A stretch of 32,000 nt of DNA, taken from positions 1,290,001-1,322,000 of the forward strand of contig OY969425.1 of NCBI GenBank assembly GCA_963699255.1, read 5' to 3'. The notes under the pieces are model-generated. The model had not been told where the DNA came from, did not search any database, and saw nothing but the letters and a program-made list of their open reading frames with translations. Shown here piece after piece: positions 7,732-29,519 of the stretch. The position numbers and the translations under genes are program-made. The DNA comes from an uncultured bacterium (GTDB lineage Bacteria; Margulisbacteria; WOR-1; CAVSGV01). The stretch's first letter is position 1; each line of letters opens with the position of its first letter.

Positions 7732-8985
7732 ATGGGAAAAACGATTGCCGAAAAAATACTTTCCAAGCATTCCCGGCAGGATGCGCGTGCGGGCGACATC
7801 GTGATCGCGGACATAGATTTCTGCATGGGCCAGGACGGGACCTCCGGGGTCGCGATCGACGTGTTTAACAAAATGAACATCGCGAAGGTCTTTGATCCGT
7901 CAAAGATAGCCATGATCATCGATCACTCATCCCCTTCTCCCAACGAAGGCGTGTCCGCAATTCACAAAAAAATAAGAGAGTTCGCAATCGCCCAGAAAAT
8001 ATCTCTATATGATATCGGCTGCGGAGTGTGCCATCAGCTGCTGCCCGAACAGGGCCACGTGACCGCCGGCGACCTGGTGATCGGCGCGGATTCCCACACG
8101 TGCACATACGGAGCTATAAACGCTTTTTCAACGGGCGTGGGCTCGACCGACTTTGCCGCCGTAATGGCTTCCGGAAAACTCTGGTTCAAGGTTCCCCAAT
8201 CGGTCAGATATGTTTTCAAAAATAAGCTGCCTAAAGGAAGTTTTTCAAAAGACCTTATACTTTACCTTATCGGAAGGACGGGCGCCGACGGGGCAACATA
8301 TCTTTCGGCAGAATTCACCGGCGATGCCGTTGATGCCCTGTCTGTGGATGAAAGGTTCACCATCTCGAACATGGCGATCGAATTCGGAGCAAAAGCCGGC
8401 ATAATGAGAGCCGATAAAAAGGTGATGGAATACGTGAAGAAACACTCCAAGAAGATCCCCGATCCCGTTGAGCCCGACAGGGACGCGAAATATCTGAATG
8501 TGATCGATATCGATGCTTCAAGGATCGGCCCACAAGTTGCCAAGCCGCATCAGGTCGATAATGTTTCGCCTGTTGAGGAGGTTGAAGGCCTTGCGATCCA
8601 GCAGGGATTCATAGGCACCTGCACGAATGGAAGGGTGAATGATTTTGAAGCCGCCGCAAAAATACTGAAAGGCAGGAAGATAAAGGGCGGGACAAGATTG
8701 ATCCTTGCTCCGGCTTCAAAAGAAATAATGCTCGAGCTCATCAAGAAAGGGCTTTATCAATCCCTGGTGGAGTCAAGCGGGACTTTTGTGACGCCGGGTT
8801 GCGGTCCGTGCGTCGGAACTCACAATGGCGTGCCGTCCGACGGGGAAAATGTGATATCAACGGCCAACAGGAACTTTAAAGGCAGGATGGGGAATACGAA
8901 AGCCTTCATTTATCTTGGTTCGCCCGCGACCGTAGCGGCTTCTGTATTGAACGGAAAGATAACGGACCCCAGGAAATATCTATAA
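7732..8985 (+). CDS. leuC: Aconitase-family dehydratase large subunit, short (archaeal-type) LeuC/HacA form
   Basis: 417 aa. N-terminus MGKTIAEKIL. Fe-S ligand blocks GTCTNGR and PGCGPCVG. GADSHT. Confidence 0.85.
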   Translation: MGKTIAEKILSKHSRQDARAGDIVIADIDFCMGQDGTSGVAIDVFNKMNIAKVFDPSKIAMIIDHSSPSPNEGVSAIHKKIREFAIAQKISLYDIGCGVCHQLLPEQGHVTAGDLVIGADSHTCTYGAINAFSTGVGSTDFAAVMASGKLWFKVPQSVRYVFKNKLPKGSFSKDLILYLIGRTGADGATYLSAEFTGDAVDALSVDERFTISNMAIEFGAKAGIMRADKKVMEYVKKHSKKIPDPVEPDRDAKYLNVIDIDASRIGPQVAKPHQVDNVSPVEEVEGLAIQQGFIGTCTNGRVNDFEAAAKILKGRKIKGGTRLILAPASKEIMLELIKKGLYQSLVESSGTFVTPGCGPCVGTHNGVPSDGENVISTANRNFKGRMGNTKAFIYLGSPATVAASVLNGKITDPRKYL

Positions 8986-9021
8986 ATCACCCGTTTGCTT
9001 CGCTTACACCCTTTATTAATT

Positions 9022-9179
9022 GGGAAGTTTGGGATATAGGGATACGGGAATATGGTTTAGGGAATTAGGAAGTCAGGAAATTAGAGCCAGATTTTTTGTC
9101 TGAGGATATTTTCCTGTATTCCATTTATTTCCCATATCCCCAAACTTTATTCCAATATTCCTATTTCCCCATATTCCCC
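9022..9179. repeat. Long imperfect palindrome built of degenerate 7-9 nt units; probable bidirectional terminator
   Basis: G/A/T-only arm GGGAAGTTTGGGATATAGGGATACGGGAATATGG.. faces a C/T/A arm ..CCCATATCCCCAAACTTTATTCC... AAGTTTGGGATAT (9025-9037) pairs with ATATCCCCAAACTT (9134-9147), CAGGAAA (9074-9080) with TTTCCTG (9111-9117). It lies between convergent stops at 8985 and 9186. Confidence 0.55.
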
Positions 9180-9185
9180 GGTATA

Positions 9186-9728
9186 TTACTTCATCGCTTC
9201 AAGTGCAGTTACGAATTTATTAATGAACGCCTCTCTATTATTCGGGCCAGAGCTCTCTACTACGTCCTGTCCACCGGGCAACATTTCTCCATTACCACCC
9301 GGAAAATATTGCACGCACACACCGAAAGTAGCTCTCACATGTTCAGCTACCTTTTTTTCGATCTCTTTCACAACATCAGCATACCCTGCGTCAGATGGGT
9401 ATATTGGCTTATCGCTGCCGACAAGATCCCTCGAACTGATGGCGCCTGTTTTCAGGTTTATCGTCGCTATTTTACCAAGCTCCACAGTATCGCTTACACG
9501 TTTAAACAGAACCGCAGGCCGATGGGCATCTTCTTTATAATATAGCAAGAATGTATCGGTGGACACCAGATTTTTTTCCTGATCGGTATATGTAAAAGCA
9601 TTATTAAAGTATTTTTTGACTATTTTTGCGTCATATTTTTTAGGTTGCTCCACCTTTTTCATTTTTGCAAGGGCGACTGAAGCTGAATCCCTGACGCTTC
9701 CTATCGAATCCGTTCCATTTATGCTCAT
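9186..9728 (-). CDS. Hypothetical protein carrying the shared IGSVRD N-terminal module
   Basis: Start moved to ATG 9728 (AAGGAGGAAG 5 nt upstream). N-terminus MSINGTDSIGSVRDSASVALAKMKK parallels the ankyrin protein upstream. Ends in EAMK. Confidence 0.6.
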   Translation of the reverse strand: MSINGTDSIGSVRDSASVALAKMKKVEQPKKYDAKIVKKYFNNAFTYTDQEKNLVSTDTFLLYYKEDAHRPAVLFKRVSDTVELGKIATINLKTGAISSRDLVGSDKPIYPSDAGYADVVKEIEKKVAEHVRATFGVCVQYFPGGNGEMLPGGQDVVESSGPNNREAFINKFVTALEAMK

Positions 9729-9826
9729 TTTAACTTCCTCCTTATGACACACGCTTTTCCATACCGTATATCGAGGTTTCTCTAGAGGGATTTCTATTTT
9801 GAAAGAAACTCGATGTGGTAGAGTTT
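9729..9826 (-). promoter_or_regulatory. Upstream block, copy A (paralogous to 10595-10690)
   Basis: Shares TTCCTCCTTAT, ACACGC, TATATCG, GGA(T/A)TTTC and TTTTTAC in the same order with copy B. Confidence 0.4.
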
Positions 9827-10594
9827 TTACTTCATAGCCTTTCTTAATATATCCGCTGCAGCAACACACATGTCCCCCCCACTGGATGAGGTCTCTGAGT
9901 GTGATATGCCTGACAGCGCAACATGTAAAGCATCATCTCCATAATCGTTTATCATTTTTACATCTGCCCCCGCCTTAAGTAAGATTTTTATTGCTTCGGC
10001 CTGTCCCTTCCATGCGGCTTCCATTAAAGCAGTCCACCCATCATATTTTTCCGCGTTTACATTTGCTCCCTTAGCAATTAAAGTTTGCATAATATCAACA
10101 TTTCCACCCGAGGCGGCTGCCATTAAAGCGGTCCATCCATTATTGTCTGTTGCGTTCACATCTGCTTTTGCATCAACTAAGATCTTCGCGAGATCGCCAT
10201 AACCTCTTTTCGCAGCCCCCATTAATGCGGTTTCGCCGTCGTCATTATCTTTCGCGTTTACATCTGCTCCCGCAGCGATCAATGCTTTTATGACATTGAC
10301 ATGACCATTCCCCGCAGAATACACCTGGAAAGTAAATGCTCCTGTCGCATACATCAAAACAGTACATCCCAATTTATTGCGGGCGTTTACATTAGCCCCC
10401 GCGGCTATTAATGCTTTTACTTTTTTAAAATCGCCATTACTTGCGGCTTCCATTAACGGGGTAATGCCATAGCTTTTATTAAACAAAACCTCGTTTTTAT
10501 CAGCCTTTTCCGTTTCCTTTATTTTTGCAGGAACAACTAAAACTGAATCTCTTAAAACTGTATCTCTTACACTTCCTATTGCTGTCATTTTCAT
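9827..10594 (-). CDS. Ankyrin-repeat protein with IGSVRD N-terminal module
   Basis: Five to six ANK repeats (G.TALM.AA..G....L..GA.VNA). N-terminus MKMTAIGSVRDTVLRDSVLVVPAKIKE. RBS TAAGGAGGAAATG. Ends in KAMK. Confidence 0.8.
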   Translation of the reverse strand: MKMTAIGSVRDTVLRDSVLVVPAKIKETEKADKNEVLFNKSYGITPLMEAASNGDFKKVKALIAAGANVNARNKLGCTVLMYATGAFTFQVYSAGNGHVNVIKALIAAGADVNAKDNDDGETALMGAAKRGYGDLAKILVDAKADVNATDNNGWTALMAAASGGNVDIMQTLIAKGANVNAEKYDGWTALMEAAWKGQAEAIKILLKAGADVKMINDYGDDALHVALSGISHSETSSSGGDMCVAAADILRKAMK

Positions 10595-10690
10595 TTCCTC
10601 CTTATATTACACGCGTTTACGTATCTTATATCGTAGTTTACTTTGTGGAATTTCAATTTTTTTAGAAGTTTTTACTGAAGATTCTTGGGA
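10595..10690 (-). promoter_or_regulatory. Upstream block, copy B
   Basis: See 9729-9826. Minus strand contains TTGAAA (10656-10651) and CGATATAAG. Confidence 0.4.
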
Positions 10691-10694
10691 GGGA

Positions 10695-10738
10695 ATATCT
10701 GGTATCTAGTCTCCGATCTCTGGTCTCTAATCTCTACT
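10695..10738 (-). repeat. Heptamer array starting at the carB-half stop codon
   Basis: Minus strand reads TAGAGAT TAGAGAC CAGAGAT CGGAGAC TAGATAC CAGATAT (6 units). Confidence 0.55.
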
Positions 10739-12293
10739 AATAATAATCTTGCAGCGCTTTGACGCCGAAACCCTTTTTCTTCGCGGCTTCAATGCCGTTG
10801 ACCGCCGCCTGGGCACCGGAGATGGTCGTGATGAGCGGGATCGAGTGTGCATAAGCCCCTGCGCGGATCGATATCTCGTTCTGTTTCGCCCTCTTTCCTG
10901 AAGGCGTGTTGATTATCAGTTTTATGCCGCCGTTCTTGATAAGATCGGCAATGTCCGGGCTGCCTTCGCCTATCTTAAAGACCCTTTTTACTTCAAGCCC
11001 GCTGTTTTTCAGCATGTCGCATGTCCCGTGGGTAGCGATAAGCGAAAACCCGAGGTCAGAAAGTTTCTTTGCGATGAAAACCACCGATCTTTTATCCTTG
11101 TTCTTAACGGATATGAAAACTTTCCCTTTCAGCGGGAGATTTTGCCCCGCGGCGATCTGGCTCTTCATGAAGGCCGACCCGAAGTTATCGTCTATCCCCA
11201 TGACCTCGCCGGTCGATTTCATTTCGGGGCCGAGGACAGGATCAACTCCGGGGAACCGCACGAACGGAAAAACGGCTTCTTTCACCGACACGTGCTTCGG
11301 GACCACCTCGCCTTTTATTCCAAGCTGGTCAAGCGTTCTGCCGAGCATGACCTTCGTGGCGAGATTTGCCCAGGCGACGCCGGTAGCCTTTGAAACGAAC
11401 GGCACCGTTCTTGAGGCCCTTGGGTTCACTTCCAGCACATACACGATATCGTTCTTAACGGCGAACTGGATGTTCATCAGGCCGATGACGTTAAGTTCTT
11501 TCGAAAGCGCGTGAGTATTATCCCTTATCCTGTTAACCAGCTCTTCCGAGAGCGAGAACGGCGGGAGCGCGCAGGCAGAATCCCCGGAGTGGATCCCCGC
11601 TTCCTCAATGTGCTCCATTATCCCGCAGACTACGGTCCTTTTACCGTCGGATATCGCGTCGACGTCCACTTCGATCGCGTCCTCGAGGAATTTGTCGATC
11701 AGGACCGGCCTCTCCGGCGATGCCCAGACGGCCGCTGCCATGTACTCGTCCATATCGCTGTCATCATAAACCACCTTCATCGCGCGTCCGCCCAGAACGT
11801 ATGACGGCCGCACAAGGACGGGATACCCGATCTCCTTCGCGGCTTTGTGCGCCTCATCGATAGTGACCGCAGTGCCGGAATCAGGCTGGACCAGATCGAG
11901 CTTTTCTATCAGTTCCTTGAAAAGCTTCCTGTCTTCCGCCCTGTCGATCGACTCCGGGGACGTGCCAAGTATATGCACTCCGGCTTTCATAAGCGGGATA
12001 GCGAGGTTCAAGGGCGTCTGCCCTCCGAACTGGACTATCACGCCTATGGGCTTTTCCTTATCGATGATTGCAAGGACGTCTTCGCGGGTCAGAGGCTCAA
12101 AGTACAGCCTGTCGGAAGTGTCGTAGTCGGTGGAGACCGTTTCCGGGTTCGAATTGACCATTATGGAAACATATCCTTCTTCCTGGATGGCGTAGGACGC
12201 GTGTACGCAGCAGTAATCGAATTCAATGCCCTGGCCGATCCTGTTAGGACCGCCGCCTAGGACAACGACTTTTTTCTTTGCTTTCTTTGCCAT
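10737..12293 (-). CDS. carB: Carbamoyl-phosphate synthase large subunit, C-terminal half only (second ATP-grasp + MGS-like domain)
   Basis: [27 protein letters not shown] matches the start of the second CarB half. C-terminal allosteric domain [12 protein letters not shown]...IINTP. Start moved to ATG 12293 because 12310-12338 forms a promoter. Confidence 0.85.
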
Positions 12294-12309
12294 TTGATAG
12301 ACCTTTGCG

Positions 12310-12338
12310 ATTTTACCTGAAAATCGGGGTAAAGGCAA
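12310..12338 (-). promoter_or_regulatory. sigma70-type promoter of the carB half-gene
   Basis: Minus strand reads TTGCCT-N17-TAAAAT, then 16 nt including AAAGG before ATG 12293. Confidence 0.45.
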
Positions 12339-12363
12339 TTATGATAAGTTGACGGATTTGCGG

Positions 12364-13725
12364 TTAATTTTTAGCTGTATATATGGGCGCATTCGCGTAA
12401 GCAGTTTTGCCGTAAGGGATCTGGGTGATTATCCTCCCCTTGTTGTCGCAAATAATGGACGGGCCTGTGTTCCCGACATGAATGCCGTACATATCGTTCT
12501 CGATTGCCCGAAATACCATCGACGCGGTGTGTATATACGGTACCATTGAATTCCCGAATGATGCATCAGTAGAAATACAGACCAGGATTTTTGCTCCGGA
12601 TTTAGCAAGTCCACGGGCTACCTGAGGGCAAATTGATTCAAGACATATCATAGTCCCAATATTATGCAAAGCTGTTGAGCTTGGTAAAGTCACATGCCCA
12701 TTGCCTCTAGAGAGCCATTGCGTTTCAAAGAATGGGAATATCATATTTTTTCTGTAGGGCTCTGTTGTGTCCCCGTCAGTTTTAAGGATGAAAGCTATAT
12801 TGAATTTCTTTCTGTTGCTGGAATAGTCTATATATGTTGTTCCAATGAGCAGTTCAGCCCCTTTTGAAGTTATGCCCTTATGCAGACCTTCAAGGTATTC
12901 ATCATTTTGAAGAATGTAATCCCCCGCGAACTCAGGCCAGATAATAAGTTTTGGTTGTTTTTTTAAAGAATCTATCGAAATATCGGCCAGTTTGTTCTTC
13001 AAAAAGCTTTTATAAAATTTGTTTCTTTCTGCTAATGCGTAATCCCTTGAAGAAGTATTCGTCTGAATAATGACCACATCTACCGGCTTACCATTGTTTT
13101 GGGCAGAATGAAGCGACAAATATCCGTAACCAAGGTTCACAGAATGAACGATTAGCAATATCGAAAGCGATATTATCAGCGTTCTTTTATCCTTCCTCAC
13201 AAAGACGTTAGCAAGAAGTGCATTTGTAAATATGATAAGGAATGCAATGAAACATGAGCCAAATATTCTTACCGACTGTATTATTATTGGGAATTGAACA
13301 AGCGATGTTTCAATAGGAAATGGAAACGCAAAATGTATATTTGCCAATAAATAATAAAGTAAAACCCATAATGCCCCAAAGAAAAAGGGGCTTAAGCTCC
13401 AGCCGTATCTATCTGAAAGAGAGGCGGCAACTGAAAATATAATTGCACCAAAAGTACCAATAACTAGAAATACTGTAACCAGCCAGAAAGTATCTGGGTA
13501 TAATATACATATTAACTTGGCGGCATCTAAAGGAACAAGCAAGATTATTGCAAAAAGTTCCCAGAATAATAGGTTTATAAAGAAACGCTGCCAACCGAAA
13601 TATCTTTGGTTTAGCATTAAAAGTGGTACAAAACCAATGAATATACCGAGCGGAAAACTTGCGATTGGATTAGGCATTGATGCAAGGGAAAGAATTAAAC
13701 TTAGAAAAAATAGAAAGAGTTGCAT
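12364..13725 (-). CDS. lnt: Apolipoprotein N-acyltransferase
   Basis: N-terminal polytopic membrane part, then CN-hydrolase triad context IIWPEFAG (Glu), YRKNMIFPFFE (Lys), MICLESICP (Cys). Start probably MQLFLFF at 13725. Confidence 0.8.
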   Translation of the reverse strand: MQLFLFFLSLILSLASMPNPIASFPLGIFIGFVPLLMLNQRYFGWQRFFINLLFWELFAIILLVPLDAAKLICILYPDTFWLVTVFLVIGTFGAIIFSVAASLSDRYGWSLSPFFFGALWVLLYYLLANIHFAFPFPIETSLVQFPIIIQSVRIFGSCFIAFLIIFTNALLANVFVRKDKRTLIISLSILLIVHSVNLGYGYLSLHSAQNNGKPVDVVIIQTNTSSRDYALAERNKFYKSFLKNKLADISIDSLKKQPKLIIWPEFAGDYILQNDEYLEGLHKGITSKGAELLIGTTYIDYSSNRKKFNIAFILKTDGDTTEPYRKNMIFPFFETQWLSRGNGHVTLPSSTALHNIGTMICLESICPQVARGLAKSGAKILVCISTDASFGNSMVPYIHTASMVFRAIENDMYGIHVGNTGPSIICDNKGRIITQIPYGKTAYANAPIYTAKN

Positions 13726-13726
13726 A

Positions 13727-14863
13727 TTAGTACTTCGGATTGACTGAGATTCCTTGATAATTCCCATAGAATCTCTTTATGATTTTATCAGTCTTTGTAT
13801 CAAGTACTAATAATTCAGGGGCAGATGATGTTGTCTCGTGCATAAAGGATGGCCCTTTGGTCATATATAATTTACCAGGTGCTACAACTGAGAACATTAA
13901 CTGTGATTTCACCTCAAATGAACCAATAACCTTATCTGTTAATGTACTAATAACCTCAACGTTATTTTGCTCTTCAAAATCATCTCTTCTGTGAAGGACA
14001 TATATCTTATTAACTGATTTATCATATGTAACCCAGAATGGGTGAGGGCTTATTGGTATCTTTTTAATAAGCTGCCCATTTTTAAGCGAGAATACCAGTA
14101 TCTCTCTGTTTGATTTATGCCTGCCATTATTATACTCTGGGAATTTATTTGTAGCAGCAGCTATATATATCTTATTGCCAACACTGCATACCCCAAAAAG
14201 GTTTGTATAATCTTTAGGAACTTCAATTATCTTAACAACTTTTTGGGTGGTTACATCAACAACAATAATACCCCCAAAATCTGTTAAGTCATCAAGAGAC
14301 GTATGAGGGGTATTTGAATTGATAAAATCACATGTAACAAAATACGCATATTTATCCCCATCAAATGTCATAGTAAGAACTTCAACGGAACGGTATAACG
14401 GGTCATCTTTTCTAAAATATATCTTCTTAACAATTTTTTTGTTCTTTCTACCGATAATGACCACACCTCCGAACCCCCGTGTTTCATCAAAACTCTCAAC
14501 CTGAACAATTAAATAATCTTTTGTTAACGATATGTAATGAGGCCCAAATGCTGAGCCAAGGTCCTTGTATCCACTAATCTTATTTTTTTTGGGGTCGTAA
14601 TAGTATATTTTCCTGCCATAATCACTAATATAATAATAGTCGGTTATAAAGCACCCGCCGTTCTCATCAACCACCATATCATTAAACGCGTTATGATGAG
14701 GAAGCTCTATTTTTCTTGCTATTTCATTTTTAGTGGTGTCGAATTGAATAAGATATTCTGGTTCATTAGGGTTGAATCTAAGGGCATAAGCATATTCGTC
14801 GGCAAAGGTAGGGTATGAGAACATTAGTAATATTGGTAATAAAAAAAATAATTTTTTCCTCAT
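13727..14863 (-). CDS. Secreted beta-propeller-like repeat protein
   Basis: Signal peptide MRKKLFFLLPILLMFSYPTFA. Recurring blades of the form ..KIY(V/I/Y)....D..T.K.I..I. Confidence 0.5.
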   Translation of the reverse strand: MRKKLFFLLPILLMFSYPTFADEYAYALRFNPNEPEYLIQFDTTKNEIARKIELPHHNAFNDMVVDENGGCFITDYYYISDYGRKIYYYDPKKNKISGYKDLGSAFGPHYISLTKDYLIVQVESFDETRGFGGVVIIGRKNKKIVKKIYFRKDDPLYRSVEVLTMTFDGDKYAYFVTCDFINSNTPHTSLDDLTDFGGIIVVDVTTQKVVKIIEVPKDYTNLFGVCSVGNKIYIAAATNKFPEYNNGRHKSNREILVFSLKNGQLIKKIPISPHPFWVTYDKSVNKIYVLHRRDDFEEQNNVEVISTLTDKVIGSFEVKSQLMFSVVAPGKLYMTKGPSFMHETTSSAPELLVLDTKTDKIIKRFYGNYQGISVNPKY

Positions 14864-14892
14864 AACACCTACCTTTACCTTTTTCTCAACAT

Positions 14893-15828
14893 CTATAGAT
14901 TGGACGACCAATCGAAATCGTATGCTAGTGCTGGTGAGAAGTACACATTATCTGGCGAAACACCTATCCAGCTGAACAAATAGTTGCCAGGTGCTGTATC
15001 GCGCAGTTTTGAAGCTGAGCCCACGGATGTTCTTCTGGTGTTCAAATCTAGATATGGCCTGAAAGTGTTCCACACCAGTTTAGAACAATACATGGAGCTT
15101 AGGTCGTTCTTGTCGCACCATTTAATGACAAAGCTGACTAAGGTTTGACCGGTTTGCACCTTTGGCAGATATGGCAGATTCTGATATCCTGCTACTCCCT
15201 GTTGAATCGCTGCATATTTCTGGCTTGAAGAAAGCCCGTTTATGCGTTTACAGGTATAATAACCAAAACCCGACCACTGGTCTGGAACTTTATGCTCCAG
15301 TACCCCGTTATCCAGTGTTGAATCAAAAATTTGATTTTGATTTGGGTCTGTTACAATAACAACATGTGTCCAGCTTGTAAAGAATTGAGCGAAGGTGTTC
15401 ATTTTGTCATCGCCACGGGTAAAGATTAGGTCTCCTGCGGAAAGGTCACCTCTATACCTATTCCAATCAAAAGGATTATTCTGGCCACTTTGCCAGTTAT
15501 AGCATATATGTGTACTGTCAATTTTGAAATTGGATGGATGGGCCTTTATCTGGGCGGAGATCCAGTTATTCTTTGACGCACATAAGGAATAGTCTAAAAG
15601 ATAAGGTAAGTCAACATATGCATTGCTTGGTGGGCTTGCGTTCTCAAAATGAAAACGTTCATTATCCCTTATATAGCCTCTTAAGTCTTCGAAGGAATAA
15701 TATGTCGGCCCCGAACTGCCTCCACCACCACTATCACCGTAAGGGCCTGTCGAAGTTGCGAATGAAATGGCCGGGGATAAAAGAAGTGCCACAAGCATAC
15801 AAACGAAAACAATATTCAATCTTTTCAT
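14893..15828 (-). CDS. Secreted permuted papain-fold (NlpC/P60 superfamily, YiiX/YaeF C92-like) amidase
   Basis: Signal peptide MKRLNIVFVCMLVALLLSPAISFA. Permuted order GDLIF..WTHVVIV (His)..MYCSKLVWNTF (Cys). Upstream AGGAGG overlaps the previous stop. Confidence 0.6.
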   Translation of the reverse strand: MKRLNIVFVCMLVALLLSPAISFATSTGPYGDSGGGGSSGPTYYSFEDLRGYIRDNERFHFENASPPSNAYVDLPYLLDYSLCASKNNWISAQIKAHPSNFKIDSTHICYNWQSGQNNPFDWNRYRGDLSAGDLIFTRGDDKMNTFAQFFTSWTHVVIVTDPNQNQIFDSTLDNGVLEHKVPDQWSGFGYYTCKRINGLSSSQKYAAIQQGVAGYQNLPYLPKVQTGQTLVSFVIKWCDKNDLSSMYCSKLVWNTFRPYLDLNTRRTSVGSASKLRDTAPGNYLFSWIGVSPDNVYFSPALAYDFDWSSNL

Positions 15829-15843
15829 CACTTTATCCACCTC

Positions 15844-16482
15844 CTACTGCGTAATACTCCCGACAAAATCGTTCATCTTATCAACCGGAATACTTACTGA
15901 TTCAGCGCTTGCCGTCCCGTCATCTCCGGAAACAAGCGTATAACCAACGACCGAGGCTTCGAGCGGCGTCATGCCAGGGTTATTGTCGGGATTGATGTTC
16001 GGCATAGAACTCTCAACGGCCGTCTGAACTTTTGAAACAATATCATCATCAACCTTTACCCCTCCTGAGGCCCCTAGAGCGTTGATATTGTCGGTTATTG
16101 TTCCTACATCGACTAAAGAGGCAGCATCACTGTTATCATCCGAACAAACACTACTGCCCACTTTCCTCGCTAGTGCTTCTTTTTTAGCTATCTTCTGTAA
16201 TACAGCCGGGCTTAAAAGAGCACCAAGCGATTGGACCGTTGTGCCGGAAGCGGACTTATCCAGCCTTGATCCCACATATCCTACGAATGAATTAACCGCG
16301 TTTCCCGCGCTGGCCTCGTCGCTTATCGCGCCAAGCTGCTTATTGAATTCCCTAACCTGCGGATTATTCGCTTTCGATATAAATGTCTTTTCAGTCACAT
16401 CTCCCCTCGTTCCTGTCATCTGGCCGCAGCCGCTGACCAAAAAGACCAGAGCCATACAGATCAACAAAATAACATATCTCAT
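15844..16482 (-). CDS. Hypothetical lipoprotein
   Basis: MRYVILLICMALVFLVSGC lipobox. RBS GAAAAGGAGGTG. Gly/Ser/Asp-rich mature part. Confidence 0.65.
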   Translation of the reverse strand: MRYVILLICMALVFLVSGCGQMTGTRGDVTEKTFISKANNPQVREFNKQLGAISDEASAGNAVNSFVGYVGSRLDKSASGTTVQSLGALLSPAVLQKIAKKEALARKVGSSVCSDDNSDAASLVDVGTITDNINALGASGGVKVDDDIVSKVQTAVESSMPNINPDNNPGMTPLEASVVGYTLVSGDDGTASAESVSIPVDKMNDFVGSITQ

Positions 16483-16656: not shown

Positions 16657-17076
16657 ATGTCAAAGTTAGAGCGGTTCGGCGTATCGATGGAGCAGGAACT
16701 CCTTAGTAAATTCGACTGTCTCATCGATGACAAGGGTTATGCCAACAGGTCCGAAGCCATAAGGGACCTCATAAGGAACCTGATCGTCGAGGAGAACGCG
16801 AAACTGGGATCAAAAGAGGTCATTGGCACCATAACCATCGTCTATAGCCATGACATCCACGACCTGAATGACTCGCTTAACCATATCCAGCATCATTTCC
16901 ACGACCAGATAATCTCCACTGTCCATGTCCATCTGGACGAGCACAACTGCATGGAAGTGCTTATTGTCAAAGGGAAAGCAAATAACATCAAGCAGATCGC
17001 CGACAAGCTGATAAGCATAAAAGGCGTGAAACACGGAAAGCTGACGATAACAACAACGGGAAAGGAGCTAAGATAG
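16657..17076 (+). CDS. nikR: Nickel-responsive regulator NikR (RHH + ACT-like metal domain)
   Basis: [29 protein letters not shown] ribbon-helix-helix. His-rich metal site [18 protein letters not shown]. Confidence 0.9.
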
Positions 17077-17105
17077 AGATGAGAGATGTGAGATGCGAGA
17101 TGCGA
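17076..17105 (+). repeat. GAGATGN heptamer array (4 units), left partner
   Basis: GAGATGA GAGATGT GAGATGC GAGATGC GA. Overlaps the nikR stop and the start of the next ORF. Confidence 0.6.
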
Positions 17106-17864
17106 GGTATTTGGTCCCGATCCATAGGAATATCCTTCCTTGTTGTGTCATTGTTAATTGTTAATTGTTCATTGTGCTACGCTACCCGCCCGCTTTATAC
17201 GGAGGACACGCTTATAGTCCCGGTAAGAAGCGTCATCATAGATTCAGGCAGCCTCCTGCAGTCACAAAGGGATAATTCCGGATTCCAGGAGGTCATCACA
17301 TCGGCAAGGTACGGAATAAGCAATAACGCAGAGATATCTCTCACCCTGCCTTTCATCAGCAGGCAGGCGGAAGGCGGGAACTTTGACGGCCTCAGCAACG
17401 GTATTTTCAACGTTAAATACGATTTCTTTTCGAGCGGCGACGGGAAAATGTCGGCCGCATACCTGTTCGGCATCCAGCTCAAATCCAGCGACAGGGGAAA
17501 CGGCCTGAACGCGGATGAGAACGACATAACTAATATGCTCATTTTTTCGCAGGATGTGGGCCTGTTCACGTACCTGCTCAATTTCGGATATACTTTTGAC
17601 GATGAACGCGCGGGCCAGCCGCAGAATGACTTCATACTTTATAACGCTGCAATAGTAAAACCTTTGAATGAAAATATGAACCTCACGGCCGAGATACAGT
17701 ACAGCAAGAACACTTACACCTTGGACATTTTCGGCGAAACCGCCGTTGGCGTCAATTATCGGCTATTTCCAAAACTCACACTTGATGCCGCGCTCGGTTG
17801 CGGACTTAACGAGAATTCGTCCAGCTCCAACTTTGTTTGCGGCTTAACTTATCAGCTAATATAA
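17079..17864 (+). CDS. Putative outer-membrane beta-barrel protein of the nickel cassette
   Basis: Signal peptide (MRGIWSRSIGISFLVVSLLIVNCSLCYA from ATG 17100, or ATG 17079). Alternating beta-strand pattern. Ends GLTYQLI. Family assignment not verifiable by eye. Confidence 0.5.
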   Translation: MRDVRCEMRGIWSRSIGISFLVVSLLIVNCSLCYATRPLYTEDTLIVPVRSVIIDSGSLLQSQRDNSGFQEVITSARYGISNNAEISLTLPFISRQAEGGNFDGLSNGIFNVKYDFFSSGDGKMSAAYLFGIQLKSSDRGNGLNADENDITNMLIFSQDVGLFTYLLNFGYTFDDERAGQPQNDFILYNAAIVKPLNENMNLTAEIQYSKNTYTLDIFGETAVGVNYRLFPKLTLDAALGCGLNENSSSSNFVCGLTYQLI

Positions 17865-18923: not shown

Positions 18924-18953
18924 TCGCATCTCCCATCTCCCATCTCGCACCTC
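18924..18953 (+). repeat. Heptamer array, right (complementary) partner
   Basis: TCGCATC TCCCATC TCCCATC TCGCACC TC. Its reverse complement GAGGTGC GAGATGG GAGATGG GAGATGC GA matches 17076-17105 at 26/30. Confidence 0.6.
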
Positions 18954-19008: not shown

Positions 19009-19512
19009 ATGATACTGAACGGAAAAGGGCATCGTCTCCCGCAGAACGACGACATAAACACGGACTATATCATATCCGGAAGATATAAATTCAAGATACA
19101 GGATCCTGTTGAGCTCGCAAAGCACCTGATGGAGGACCTGGACCCGAATTTCTATTCAAAGCTGAAAAAGGGCGACTTTATCGTGGCCGGCGACAACTTC
19201 GGCTGCGGTTCGAGCAGGGAACAGGCACCGATGGCGGTCAAATACGCGGGAATATCGGCGGTCCTGGCCAAATCCTTCGCGAGGATATTCTACAGGAACT
19301 GCTTCAATCTGGGGCTTCCGGCGATAGAGTGCGACACTGACGGCATATCAGAGGGCGACGAACTTGAGGTCGATCTTGATAAGGGAGTGATAAGGAACAA
19401 GACCAAGTCAACATCGATCAAGATAAGCCCGATACCGAAGACGATGCAGACGCTTTTGTCTGACGGCGGGCTTGTTGAACACTTCAAAAAACACGGCGGG
19501 TTCAAGTTTTAA
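19009..19512 (+). CDS. leuD: Aconitase-family dehydratase small subunit (LeuD/HacB type)
   Basis: 167 aa. [12 protein letters not shown] and [14 protein letters not shown] swivel-domain motifs. Confidence 0.85.
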
Positions 19513-22619: not shown

Positions 22620-23179
22620 TTAAGTAGTATACTCGTCGGCTACGGTCATCCCTAATGGGATTATAACTACTGCATGATCCCTAACGGAGCTGAAAAAACG
22701 GTTCAGTGACATAAATATCCCAATATTATTGATATGGGTTCCAATTGAAATCCTATCTAACCAAATTGTTACCCCTCTTTTACTTTCTATATCTGCACTC
22801 ATTTCAGCATATCGTGTTCCCATGCCTTTAAATGAGTAAGGGGCTTTATTGAAAAATATCTGATGCATAATTTCAACAACATCTCCCACAGTTTTTGGAA
22901 CTGGACTGATCGCATTAAACTCCCCACCTGTGTTATTGAATATAACAGGGCTGTTGAGGGAAATGTTCCATAGATCGGTCCCTAACATAGTTGTTGGAAC
23001 TTTTACGACTTCTTCTGAGATTTTTATTCTATCTACGATATTTCTTTCTGCAAATGGTCGAACTCGCGCCAATAACTTAGGGGTCAGCCCCGAAAATTCT
23101 TCCTTAAAAATGCCAGATCTTCTCCTTTCGTCAAAAATATAGTTTCTCTCTTTCCTCTAACACCAAGATACACTTCCAT
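22620..23179 (-). pseudogene. Hypothetical gene interrupted by a frameshift at a T5 run
   Basis: A strong RBS (TAAGGAGG) plus ATG 23179 opens a 31-codon ORF. The -1 frame is open from about 23157 and continues into the 150-aa ORF (22620-23072), which itself has only a TTG start and no SD. The frames meet at sense ATATTTTTGACG (23129-23140). Confidence 0.5.
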
Positions 23180-23322
23180 ATTGCTTGCCTCCTTAAAATA
23201 GGCTCCCTCGGCTCTACCCGAGAGTTTCGCTTTGCTTTTTGTCTTTCCGCATATTTATCGAGGAAAAACCAGAAGAATTTCAGTTTGTTATTAATTATTT
23301 AAACCGTGCTGGAACGGGGTTA

Positions 23323-23386
23323 GAGATGCGAAGTGTGAGATGCGAGACGCGATTTTTCGCATCTCCCATCTCTCGTCTCACATCTC
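23323..23386 (-). terminator. Heptamer-array hairpin immediately 3' of rmlC
   Basis: GAGATGC GAAGTGT GAGATGC GAGACGC GA - TTTT - TCGCATC TCCCATC TCTCGTC TCACATC TC. As minus-strand RNA, 26/30 positions pair counting G-U. The right arm overlaps the rmlC stop. Confidence 0.6.
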
Positions 23387-24011
23387 ATTTTCCGTAAATG
23401 AATTGGTCCGAATTCTTTTCTTTCGACCACGCGGTCAAGGTGAAGCCGTTCTTGTCTTTGTCGGTCATCAGTTTCGTCTTCGGCACGATCGAGTCAAATG
23501 TCTTTTTCAGTTTCGGGTCGCAGGCGGACCAATCGATATCCTTCGCCAGAGGGGATATTGAGGCTTCACACCCCGGGCTGTATTCGCCCGAGCAGAAATA
23601 TTCCACCTGGCTATCTTCAACCGCAAGTATGCCGTGGGCAAATCCCGGCGGCAGCCATATCCATTCGTTGAAATCGTACTCCGGATCCGCTTCCAACTCA
23701 TAAGCAACTGCTTTACCGAAGCTCGGCGATCCTTTGCGGATATCGATCCCCAGGTCCAGTATCCTTCCCCTCATGACCCTGACGAGCTTGCCCATGTAAG
23801 GGTTCCATTGAAAATGGAAGCCCCTGAAAGTCCCGGCCTTTGAAAAAGCATCGTTGCACTGGAGGAATTCGATATTCTTCATGAAATCGATTTTCTTGAA
23901 ATCGCTTTTCCTGAAAGTCTCGGTGAAATAGCCGCGGTGGTCGTTAAACCGTCCGAAACGTATGACCTTTATCTCCGGTATGGCAAGGGTTATTACTTCA
24001 TTGATTTTCAT
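23385..24011 (-). CDS. rfbC: dTDP-4-dehydrorhamnose 3,5-epimerase (cupin)
   Basis: FNDHRGYFTETF, FRGFHFQ, GKLVRVMRGRILDLGIDIRKGSPSFGK, WLPPGFAHGI. Start moved to ATG 24011 (MKINEV). Confidence 0.85.
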   Translation of the reverse strand: MKINEVITLAIPEIKVIRFGRFNDHRGYFTETFRKSDFKKIDFMKNIEFLQCNDAFSKAGTFRGFHFQWNPYMGKLVRVMRGRILDLGIDIRKGSPSFGKAVAYELEADPEYDFNEWIWLPPGFAHGILAVEDSQVEYFCSGEYSPGCEASISPLAKDIDWSACDPKLKKTFDSIVPKTKLMTDKDKNGFTLTAWSKEKNSDQFIYGK

Positions 24012-27616: not shown

Positions 27617-27639
27617 CAATAAAAATGAAATTTTTATTG
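27617..27639. promoter_or_regulatory. Perfect AT-rich palindrome in a divergent intergenic region
   Basis: CAATAAAAAT-gaa-ATTTTTATTG (10-bp arms). Followed by CACGA-N10-TCGTG (27646-27665). Confidence 0.35.
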
Positions 27640-27693
27640 ATATACCACGATAATAAGCTGTCGTGATCTCATACTATAAGGAGAATGATACTA

Positions 27694-28440
27694 ATGCCGA
27701 AAATAACATGGAAAACAGTCAATATCGATCTGAAGCTTAATGGAGCAATAAGAAAAGTATACCCGAAAAACAAGGGATACACGATAGAATGGGATATGAG
27801 GAATCTACGGAAAGGCGCAACAAAAATGTTCGCTGACCTGAGAACCCTTAACAATGAACAGCTTGTGGTCCCAAAAGACGAAACAAGGGACTTTACGCCT
27901 CGAGAACTCTACGCCGGCAAAGATTTTATAAAGAGTGTGATCAATGGTCGGGGAAGTTGCGGCACTGAATGGACCCTTAAGATGGAAATGGAAAAGGATG
28001 CTCTCGCGATTAGCCATGTTCGATATCACTGGTTTAGCGGTGGCGACCACACAATAAATCACATATTAAAGATCTCCAAAACGTCAGTGTTTTCATCGTT
28101 TAGTCAGGATGGTGAAAGCATGGGCGGCCCAATATACGGCGGCATATCCAATGATCCGAAGTGCGAGAATGCAATTGCCAACCCGTTAAGAAAAATAATA
28201 TTCCGGAAAATTGATCGAGGGTGGGGAAAAGAAAATTGGAGTTTCTGGCTGATTGCCAATCCCGAAGCATACAAGGTAATAAAAAATGCGACTAAAGACA
28301 TGGCCTTTATTAAGGTAGCTCACATAGAAGATGAGCGTGACATAACCAAAGTACCAAATCATGCTTTGCGGTTAACATTAAGGCTTATTGACAAAGTAGA
28401 GAAAAAGAAAGAGGAAATTGATTGGATCAATTGGGACTGA
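27694..28440 (+). CDS. Hypothetical protein (AT-rich orphan)
   Basis: Long ORF. AAGGAG at 27678-27683 favours ATG 27694 over 27685. No recognisable motif. Confidence 0.5.
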   Translation: MPKITWKTVNIDLKLNGAIRKVYPKNKGYTIEWDMRNLRKGATKMFADLRTLNNEQLVVPKDETRDFTPRELYAGKDFIKSVINGRGSCGTEWTLKMEMEKDALAISHVRYHWFSGGDHTINHILKISKTSVFSSFSQDGESMGGPIYGGISNDPKCENAIANPLRKIIFRKIDRGWGKENWSFWLIANPEAYKVIKNATKDMAFIKVAHIEDERDITKVPNHALRLTLRLIDKVEKKKEEIDWINWD

Positions 28441-28465: not shown

Positions 28466-29167
28466 ATGTTATCATTCGCCTGCATGGCAAAAGACTTGGG
28501 TAAAAGGATCGACTTCCATATCCATTCGATATTAAGCGACGGAATGCTCCTTCCCGCCGCCATGGCGAGGGAAGCCGAGGTCAAAGGCATTTCTGCCATC
28601 GCGATAACCGACCACGTGGATGCGTCAAACCTGGAGGAAGTGCTTGCCGCCCTTACGAAATTCGTCAAAAAGCAGGGGAAAACGCTGCCTATTCAGGTCC
28701 TTCCAGGTGTTGAGCTGAGCTATCTCAGACCGGACCTTATTAAGAATTATGCCAGGCAGTCGCGCAAGCTGGGCGCAAAGGTCGTTATTGTCCATGGCCA
28801 ATCCCCGGTTGAGCCGGTGATCCCGGGAACTAATCTCGAATCGGTCAAGCTCAAAAGTCTCGTTGATATCCTGGCCCATCCGGGAAACACCCTCACCGAA
28901 GAAGAAGCAAGTCTGGCAAAAGAGAACGGCATTTTCCTGGAACTCTCGACCCGCAGAGGACATAAGGAAGGCAACAGGCATGTGGCTCAGATGGCAAAGA
29001 AAACCGGCGCGAAGCTCCTCGTCAATACCGATTCGCATACCGAAACCGACCTGATAACTCAGGAACAGGCTTATCAGGTCGCCCTGGATGCCGGACTAAG
29101 CGAAGAAGAAGCGATTAAAGTCATCAGGGATAATCCAAAGGAACTTCTGGCCAGGATGAAATTTTGA
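28466..29167 (+). CDS. PHP-domain metal-dependent phosphoesterase
   Basis: IDFHIHSILSDG and AITDHVD motifs, later HG and DSH. Start ambiguous (28418 TTG, 28466 or 28484). Confidence 0.7.
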   Translation: MLSFACMAKDLGKRIDFHIHSILSDGMLLPAAMAREAEVKGISAIAITDHVDASNLEEVLAALTKFVKKQGKTLPIQVLPGVELSYLRPDLIKNYARQSRKLGAKVVIVHGQSPVEPVIPGTNLESVKLKSLVDILAHPGNTLTEEEASLAKENGIFLELSTRRGHKEGNRHVAQMAKKTGAKLLVNTDSHTETDLITQEQAYQVALDAGLSEEEAIKVIRDNPKELLARMKF

Positions 29168-29222
29168 TCAATTTGGTTCGATAATATATAGGAAGATTAA
29201 ATTCGCCTGAAGGAGATTTTAT

Positions 29223-29519
29223 ATGCCGGTAGATGGACTCTCATCGAGTGATTTCAAGTTAAAGACTATATACCCATCAAAAGGTACAAGTGAACAAGAA
29301 TCACCGACAGAGTTTGTAATTGTAAAGAAAAATGATACATTATGGAATATCGTAAAAACCATATATGGGGGTTCCCAAAAACAAATTAAGGAGACAGTAA
29401 AAGTAATAGGAGAAAACAATAATATTGATCCTGATAAGATATTTCCGAGGCAAAAAATTAAATTGCTCAGCGATAATCAATTTGCAACGATATATCCGGA
29501 TTTAATTGATGTGGATTGA
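29223..29519 (+). CDS. Small LysM-domain protein
   Basis: VIVKKNDTLWNIVKTIYGG...IDPDKIFPRQKIKL LysM pattern. RBS GAAGGAG. No signal peptide seen. Confidence 0.65.
   Translation: MPVDGLSSSDFKLKTIYPSKGTSEQESPTEFVIVKKNDTLWNIVKTIYGGSQKQIKETVKVIGENNNIDPDKIFPRQKIKLLSDNQFATIYPDLIDVD

Follow-up and report, generated by a model that had tools for sequence, protein, structure and literature searches.

How do two neighbouring genes with unrelated products come to begin alike? The question is raised by a pair of genes in a 32,000-nucleotide stretch of DNA, hereafter called the window, from an uncultured bacterium of the WOR-1 group of Margulisbacteria (contig OY969425.1; coordinates below are positions in the window). 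The genes are ank, which encodes a protein with five ankyrin (ANK) repeats, and geneB (9186..9728), which encodes an orphan protein of 180 residues. Both lie on the minus strand between carB (12338..10737) and the convergent leuC (7732..8985). We found that the match between their 5′ regions takes in promoter, 5′ untranslated region (5′UTR), Shine-Dalgarno site and about 24 codons. The explanation that we favour, with modest confidence, is a reassortment of one 5′ module between two members: ank would be an old copy of the geneB 5′ end on an unrelated body, with co-regulation of the two genes and a conserved N-terminal tail.

The common 5′ module and its history

Anchored on the start codons at 9728 and 10588, the two regions from −80 to +72 match without a gap at 97 of 152 nucleotides, against 38.2 ± 5.7 for random pairs from the window. 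The pattern GCGTGTNNNATAAGGAGGAARTNAAAATGA, which covers 5′UTR, Shine-Dalgarno site and start codon, has just two occurrences, at 9725-9754 and 10585-10614 (expected 0). An earlier note on this DNA had drawn attention to the likeness of the upstream blocks and to six IGSVRD codons that differ only synonymously, and both observations hold. Indeed, the IGSVRD-codon pattern is found exactly twice (expected 0.19), and the two versions, ATAGGAAGCGTCAGGGAT and ATAGGAAGTGTAAGAGAT, differ at three positions, all three synonymous and none non-synonymous (p about 0.01). At the protein level, the only parts that BLASTP brings into alignment are residues 8-40 in geneB and 3-40 in Ank (E 0.011). The similarity is thus confined to the N-terminal ~35 residues and the bodies are, as far as sequence tells, unrelated, as had been proposed: five ANK repeats stand against an orphan alpha/beta domain.

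The ank reading frame can be opened at either of two ATGs, giving 253 residues (9827..10588, second ATG) or 255 residues (9827..10594). Its Shine-Dalgarno sequence AAGGAGG (10597..10603, minus strand) stands 8 nt before the second ATG, and the same heptamer of geneB (9737..9743, minus strand) has an identical spacing to its ATG. Because of this spacing and the alignment with geneB, the second ATG (10588) is probably the start. Counted from there, the residues RDS..V..AK.K occupy positions 13-24 in both proteins. The numbering is kept because two 15-nt indels in the Ank tail cancel exactly: a deficit nearer the ank start is offset by a 15-nt tandem duplication (RDTVL / RDSVL; 10538..10569, minus strand), so that the total tail length is preserved. 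The duplication had been read from the letters alone and was recovered by Tandem Repeats Finder (TRF; period 15, 2.1 copies, 94% match).

Over the 20 aligned codons of the leader, the proportion of synonymous differences between ank and geneB (pS) is 0.65 and that of non-synonymous differences (pN) 0.19; for IGSVRD alone the values are 0.75 and 0. The leader peptide is under purifying selection, in agreement with the suggestion that selection acts on this segment as a peptide.

What was the order of events? The loci L001-L009 come from lake-sediment and wood samples. In four loci of relatives (L001-L004), carB is followed after 100-160 nt by geneB, with no ank gene, and in two others (L005 and L006) geneB abuts leuC. 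In L004 a single alignment runs from carB across the promoter as far as the start of geneB and covers 12347..10585 of the window at 85%; a separate one covers 9810..9186. Because the first of these alignments is unbroken, the promoter that now drives ank, P1, is, judged by alignment, the positional orthologue of the geneB promoter of the relatives. In the window, the ank body and a second copy of promoter and leader lie between P1 and geneB.

The duplication is old. The promoter blocks of the two window copies are identical at 39 of 56 positions, while either copy matches the L004 orthologue at 43-44 of 56, and the leader pS of 0.65 points the same way; the relatives would then have lost ank or never received it. 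A recent local duplication is the outcome that the earlier note had set against its own reading; the alternative weighed here takes in ongoing gene conversion of the tandem 5′ regions as well, in either case without any function. Such an origin would suit the tandem arrangement on one strand, the direct repeats that flank ank and the leader of P0004, a geneB relative encoded at L007, which looks recently exchanged. All 23 leader residues of P0004 are identical to those of window geneB, as are 17 of 21 codons, while its body has only 42% identity (24 of 54 codons). Because the leader is identical and the body so far diverged, these figures suggest a recent leader exchange between diverged alleles or paralogues. 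The L007 contig is too short, at 549 nt, to show a gene context; its leader matches 9660-9728 of the window at 65 of 69 nt. We nevertheless regard a recent duplication as extremely improbable: each window copy is closer to L004 than to the other copy, and their leader pS is at least as large as that of the most distant orthologues (0.57).

The same data bear on a reading at the RNA level, in which an mRNA leader structure, a small-RNA target or a translational operator would account for the conserved stretch between the −10 box and codon ~24, and the peptide would be incidental. The 5′UTR segment GATACGnAAACGCGTGT is kept in the ank copy and, with some substitutions at L004 and L005, in the geneB orthologues, and the P0004 leader has unusually few synonymous changes compared with its body. 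However, the 5′ regions give a weak consensus fold (−5.7 kcal/mol) that shows hardly any covariation, and they match no Rfam family. Between the window leaders the synonymous sites are highly diverged while the amino acids are kept, and in three other orthologue pairs the leader holds no excess of identical codons over the body. We hardly credit an RNA element as the explanation.

From these comparisons we arrive at the following picture for the favoured reassortment. The two genes would be two transcription units, each with its own copy of a predicted sigma-28-class promoter. At a site where the relatives have only carB, promoter and geneB, an old copy of the whole geneB 5′ module would form the head of ank, from the promoter through 5′UTR and Shine-Dalgarno site to codon ~24. 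The ankyrin-repeat body joined to it would have no relation to geneB and would now be flanked by the direct repeats.

The predicted sigma-28-class promoter

The core of the upstream block is predicted to be a sigma-28-class promoter that occurs lineage-wide, with a 5′UTR specific to geneB on top of it. The promoter consensus is GAAATTTC-N11-nnCGATA[AT], located ~40 nt before the ATG. P1, ahead of ank (AAAAATTGAAATTCC-N-ACGATAT; 10628..10661, minus strand), matches TGAAAT-N16-CGATA exactly, and P2, ahead of geneB (AAAATAGAAATCCC-N-TCGATAT; 9768..9800, minus strand), matches it with one mismatch and is kept in L001, L004 and L005. The geneB orthologues retain the block AAAAnTGAAATTCCTCTAnAGAAnnCTCGATAnAAGATACGGAAACGCGTGT, even at L005, where ~140 nt are inserted before the Shine-Dalgarno site. 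Three more exact sites of this class were found in the window. One (23256..23282, minus strand) precedes a 31-residue open reading frame (23179..23084) and a 150-residue orphan (23072..22620), the next (27626..27652, plus strand) a 251-residue orphan (27685..28440) and the last (29157..29183, plus strand) a 98-residue LysM protein (29223..29519). The window thus holds four exact sites and one with a single mismatch, where ~0.02-0.05 exact ones are expected from base composition. All five are intergenic and lie ~32-76 nt before a start codon with a Shine-Dalgarno sequence; from the −10 box to the ATG the distance is ~40 nt in four of the five.

To assign the class we used a sequence definition, in which the 8-mer GCCGATAA, its CGA invariant, forms the −10 element and TAAA(GTTT), placed 11 nt before it, the −35 element. 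E. coli FliA sites read TAAAGTTT-N11-GCCGATAA (PMC4183435). P1 reads GAAATTCC-N11-TACGATAT, P2 GAAATCCC-N11-CTCGATAT and the lineage consensus GAAATTTC-N11-TgnCGATAA. The resemblance to FliA/SigD promoters lies in the A-rich/T-rich −35 element (GAAATTTC against TAAAGTTT), the identical 11-nt spacer and the −10 element with its invariant CGATA[AT]. In contrast to these promoters, the first −35 base is G here and not T, a further conserved AAAAAGT stands upstream, the density is high (five sites in 32 kb) and the downstream genes are orphan, ANK, LRR or LysM genes in place of flagellar or chemotaxis genes. The main genomic study of these phyla contains no occurrence of flagella (PMC6349859), and a literature search for Margulisbacteria with ankyrin, flagella or Termititenax returned nothing relevant. 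A separate scan of 8900-10800 for sigma-70 promoters and intrinsic terminators gave no matches on the minus strand.

We then asked how widely the motif is distributed. A scan of 185,579 species genomes with the invariant core of six sequences gave at least 120 matches. Among the 120 matches listed, ~19 belong to metagenome-assembled genomes (MAGs) of Margulisiibacteriota, Saganbacteria, WOR-1 or Termititenax and six to the MAG MFD03726.bin.2.164, ~25 in total. The extended consensus AAAAAGTGAAATTTCc.g.aAAA..Tg.CGATAA is found, among the matches listed, only in those ~25; the others lack it. In these lineages and this MAG the core is strongly over-represented among the matches listed. The source organism probably belongs to the same group, judged by this enrichment and by a YchF protein that has 62% identity to a Saganbacteria MAG. 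Most downstream genes have no Pfam match, and the remainder include ANK, LRR and LysM genes and, in the related MAGs, a weak Tox-ART/HD match. The same core also stands upstream of P0022, an Ank homologue at another locus. Coordinated expression of ank and geneB, which had been proposed, is plausible on this evidence, as both stand behind the same lineage-wide promoter type. The promoter would be read by a group-3 (FliA-like) sigma factor that controls accessory proteins specific to the lineage.

The scan gave a number of additional observations. The group matches include L014, L058, L066, L076, L088, L090, L099, L107, L116, L118, L121 and L125-L129, further promoter matches were seen at L016, L022, L027, L039, L054 and L087, and several of the 8-kb loci hold a second site. 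In L058 from Termititenax (1494-2234 and 3-431) and in L027 (4748-5248 and 6101-6295) we saw tandem paralogues that are alike in promoter class and N-termini. One such N-terminus, MSEVGLLNV..GGGVRDSKY, holds VRDS as the leader does. Three MAGs of Saganbacteria or Margulisiibacteriota (L014 436-681, L090 3-236, L121 7199-7438) encode, right after the promoter, all-helical, Ala/Ser-rich proteins of ~80 residues without a Pfam match, which may be a conserved regulon member.

The tail and the two bodies

What does the module deliver to the two proteins? The Ank tail of geneB type comprises ~28 codons (MTAIGSVRDTVLRDSVLVVPAKIKETEK; 10505..10588, minus strand) and the geneB tail reads MSINGTDSIGSVRDSASVALAKMKKVEQ (9645..9728, minus strand). 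Both are predicted to be disordered: in the AlphaFold2 models, geneB residues 1-28 and Ank residues 1-30 have a predicted local distance difference test score (pLDDT) below 50. The geneB tail is rich in Ser, Thr, Ile, Asn and Gly, and among the geneB orthologues it retains 70-100% identity while the body drops to 42-44%. Signal peptides of the Sec or Tat type were not recognised in either protein, as the longest uncharged run has 7 residues, whereas such peptides need a hydrophobic core of at least 10-15 uncharged residues behind a positively charged n-region (with an RR motif in addition for Tat). The maximum Kyte-Doolittle value, KD(10), is 0.8 for geneB and 1.5 for Ank, compared with 2.5-3.5, and uncharged runs of 16-21, for ANK homologues with signal peptides. 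The claim that neither protein has a Sec signal is therefore upheld: a Sec-type hydrophobic core is lacking in both. The GS-rich tail had also prompted us to consider an encapsulin cargo or microcompartment encapsulation peptide, which we discarded; the window holds no shell gene and we obtained no supporting match.

The Ank body is a clear ankyrin-repeat domain with five Ank stretches (Pfam Ank_2, 145 bits with a cut-off of 27.3, E 7.6e-43). Its model has a pLDDT of 85.8 overall and of more than 90 in the solenoid. The closest homologue, P0022, is 50% identical and comes from the same samples as the L005 geneB, at a different locus. Like bacterial ankyrin-repeat proteins including Dot/Icm effectors, Ank has five canonical repeats and a capping helix, and it matches the Legionella AnkY/I/G/H models weakly, below threshold and through the repeats alone. 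In contrast to the Dot/Icm Ank effectors, its matches are far below the NCBIfam equivalog cut-offs (the best, AnkY, 76.8 bits against 600), and no type IV secretion signal or context is present. Many ANK homologues have a Sec or lipoprotein signal peptide where Ank has the tail of geneB type, and in this Ank differs from most of its close environmental homologues, which are Sec-exported or lipoproteins. P0022, like Ank, has neither a Sec nor a lipoprotein signal peptide.

The final nucleotides of the two genes are indeed identical at 11 of 12 positions (GCGATGAAGTAA and GCTATGAAGTAA), which had led to the proposal of a second common module, a C-terminal AMK. This part of the proposal did not survive. 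The Ank C-terminus, ..AAADILRKAMK, belongs to the capping helix 237-252 (pLDDT 96) and aligns with ..AADIIEEAMANQK / ..IAADIIEEAMANQK of P0022 and with ..LLKxAGA(K/T)E of 10 other ANK proteins. Because AMK is native to the ANK capping helix, its match with ..ALEAMK of geneB is, on alignment and model, a coincidence.

The geneB protein is rare. We found 5 homologues among 5.8 billion clusters and 3 representatives among 1.84 billion, and a metagenome scan with the geneB alignment gave one Joint Genome Institute (JGI) locus, the L006 contig only. There is no match above 0.1 in Pfam, NCBIfam or PADLOC and a marginal one in PHROGs (E 0.004); PHROGs and PADLOC were uninformative for geneB and for the other orphans of the window. 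A FlgM-like identity, considered for the N-terminus MSI.., found no support in Pfam or NCBIfam and was dropped. In the AlphaFold2 model (pLDDT 76) the disordered tail is followed by an alpha/beta domain at 29-180, mostly with pLDDT 80-94. It had been called an unknown fold, and this description stands: the model gave no fold match in the PDB and the hidden Markov model (HMM) of geneB no match among PDB sequences. Despite its rarity geneB is a real gene, fast-evolving and under purifying selection, because its ratio of non-synonymous to synonymous substitution rates (dN/dS) is 0.13-0.37 against 0.03-0.05 for carB and leuC. Its termini are under more constraint than its core.

Taken together, the tail is probably functional. 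Since it is conserved, disordered and N-terminal, we infer a recognition or targeting peptide: in the favoured reassortment the ~28 residues would act as a short linear motif that serves non-Sec export, recognition by a chaperone or partner, or localisation. With this tail the two proteins would be handled alike, and in Ank it would take the position of the Sec or lipoprotein signal peptide.

Several observations weigh against this reading. The selection estimate for the leader covers only 20 codons. After IGSVRD the Ank tail has 9 non-synonymous changes in 14 codons in addition to the two 15-nt indels, and because of these changes part of it may be drifting. P0022 has a different N-terminus without IGSVRD, and its gene is without the geneB 5′UTR. 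Because the promoter is elsewhere also found before rpoD-like, Rrf2, ROK and RRM genes, its class may be a major general promoter rather than one of a dedicated regulon, and the 32-kb window contains no sigma-factor gene. Type III or flagellar export genes are likewise absent from the window, and nothing there links the tail to an export system. Finally, a search of 1.84 billion protein representatives with a leader-containing HMM yielded, besides geneB relatives and the Ank cluster itself, nothing but two spurious giant proteins.

The changes within the Ank tail would suit a promoter capture with a passenger peptide. Here the ank body would have been inserted in frame just inside geneB or into a duplicated geneB 5′ end, gaining promoter, Shine-Dalgarno site and start codon in the process, and the Ank tail would be a functionless leftover of a peptide needed only by geneB. 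Ank has lost 15 nt and gained a tandem duplication in this tail, the fusion is found only in this species (all members of the Ank cluster come from the same strain or species) and P0022 does without a tail. However, the synonymous sites are near saturation while pN stays at 0.19. IGSVRD has remained intact, and the two indels make up for each other exactly, which preserves the numbering of RDS..V..AK.K. For expression, an untranslated promoter fusion would suffice. A passenger peptide is therefore a possible but doubtful explanation.

The HMM search bears in turn on the larger idea of the earlier note: a modular cargo family with many bodies, an N-terminal export leader, a C-terminal AMK signal and a secretion apparatus, possibly including the orphan secretin. 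In its favour, the tail is disordered, rich in Ser, Thr, Ile, Asn and Gly, non-Sec and conserved, ANK, LRR and Tox-ART-like proteins stand behind the same promoter class in related genomes, and P0004 combines a leader of window type with a diverged body. A count of further leader-bearing bodies had been recommended as a check, and no third body appeared among the 1.84 billion representatives. The Ank leader, however, had gone into building the profile and still reached no better than E = 5e-4, so that an equally diverged third leader would probably have escaped this search. A tblastn search with the leader against the 120 loci from the promoter scan found nothing, the four other window proteins behind the promoter class have no leader, nor has P0022, and the AMK of Ank belongs to its capping helix. 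The secretin (1283-2377) is GspD/PilQ-like but below the NCBIfam cut-offs; it lies 7 kb away, directly adjoined by an IS200-type Y1 transposase (782-1270), with no other type II secretion or type IV pilus genes beside it within the window. We consider this larger family very unlikely. Two candidate relatives were rejected as well: P0014 is a translated repeat, and P0015 a YadA-type adhesin with stalk repeats that bear a weak resemblance to geneB 49-100.

Which known systems does the favoured reassortment resemble? The terminal reassortment of type III effectors, reportedly described by Stavrinides, Ma and Guttman in 2006, is said to fuse a 5′ end to an unrelated C-terminal body. The present pair has the corresponding features, unrelated bodies with a common promoter box and a common N-terminal tail. 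As there, a regulon promoter box and ~20-50 N-terminal codons stand on an unrelated body, the leader is disordered, non-Sec and rich in Ser, Thr, Ile and Asn, and regulation would be common to both genes. Unlike there, the promoter is sigma-28-like and not HrpL/hrp-box dependent, only two bodies carry the module, and this organism is not known to have a type III system, a chaperone or a host. Polymorphic toxin and contact-dependent inhibition (CDI) cassettes likewise have a conserved 5′ part with differing 3′ bodies in tandem, and P0004 gives signs of leader exchange. In contrast to such cassettes, the conserved part has ~25 residues and is no trafficking domain, a toxin/immunity pair and an orphan C-terminal array are absent, and the bodies consist of an ANK scaffold and an orphan fold. 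We claim resemblance only, since membership in a type III reassortment or FliA system would call for a sigma factor, an apparatus and secretion data.

Extending the analogy, a FliA-like sigma factor detached from flagella might drive a large regulon of fast-evolving proteins (orphans, ANK, LRR, LysM and ART-like) that are handled by a non-Sec route recognising disordered tails such as MSINGTDSIGSVRDS. The regulon would gain members whenever promoter plus tail are grafted onto foreign bodies, with ank as an example. We offer this as a speculation that is quite unlikely to hold in full.

Flanking features and meaning for the lineage

The region of ank and geneB has a G+C content of 0.41-0.44, against ~0.5 in the flanks. 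Between the convergent geneB and leuC lies a long imperfect hairpin of ~160 nt (9022..9178), an inverted repeat with 50-nt arms and GGGAAT/ATTCCC-like units (RNA fold −61.7 kcal/mol, z −4.3), which is probably a bidirectional terminator or a repeat element; Rfam gave only miRNA-like matches for 9023-9178, all below threshold. Directly 3′ of the carB stop and upstream of P1, TRF found a 7-nt tandem array (10698..10736, minus strand) that is kept in L001, L004 and L005. It is one of several short intergenic 7-nt arrays with GAGAC/GAGAT/GAGATG-like units; the others are at 17071-17106, 18927-18946 and 23360-23387, the last of which belongs to an inverted repeat that lies upstream of a promoter copy.

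Further out, 10 kb separate leuC (7732-8985) from leuD (19009-19512), and of carB only a gene for the C-terminal half (533 residues) is present; both are unusual gene splits for the lineage. The block 12364-16482, which encodes Lnt, a beta-propeller protein, a C92 peptidase and a 212-residue orphan, stands between carB and nikR, and its G+C content is as low as 0.35 at 13-15 kb. In L001 only ~0.7 kb separates carB from nikR, which is why the block may represent an inserted island.

If the tail is a targeting peptide, the locus would be a case in which reassortment of promoter plus signal creates a new ANK protein, in a phylum without cultured members or known effector biology. If it is a passenger, the locus would simply be an example of promoter capture. 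Should a detached FliA-like regulon exist, the promoter motif would become a genomic marker of the effector or secretome repertoire in this uncultured phylum. More solid, and the most reusable result, is the sharply defined sigma-28-like promoter motif itself, which is directly searchable. It can be used to list co-regulated orphan proteins in Margulisbacteria and Saganbacteria, and to ask what role a FliA-type sigma factor may have where flagella are undescribed.

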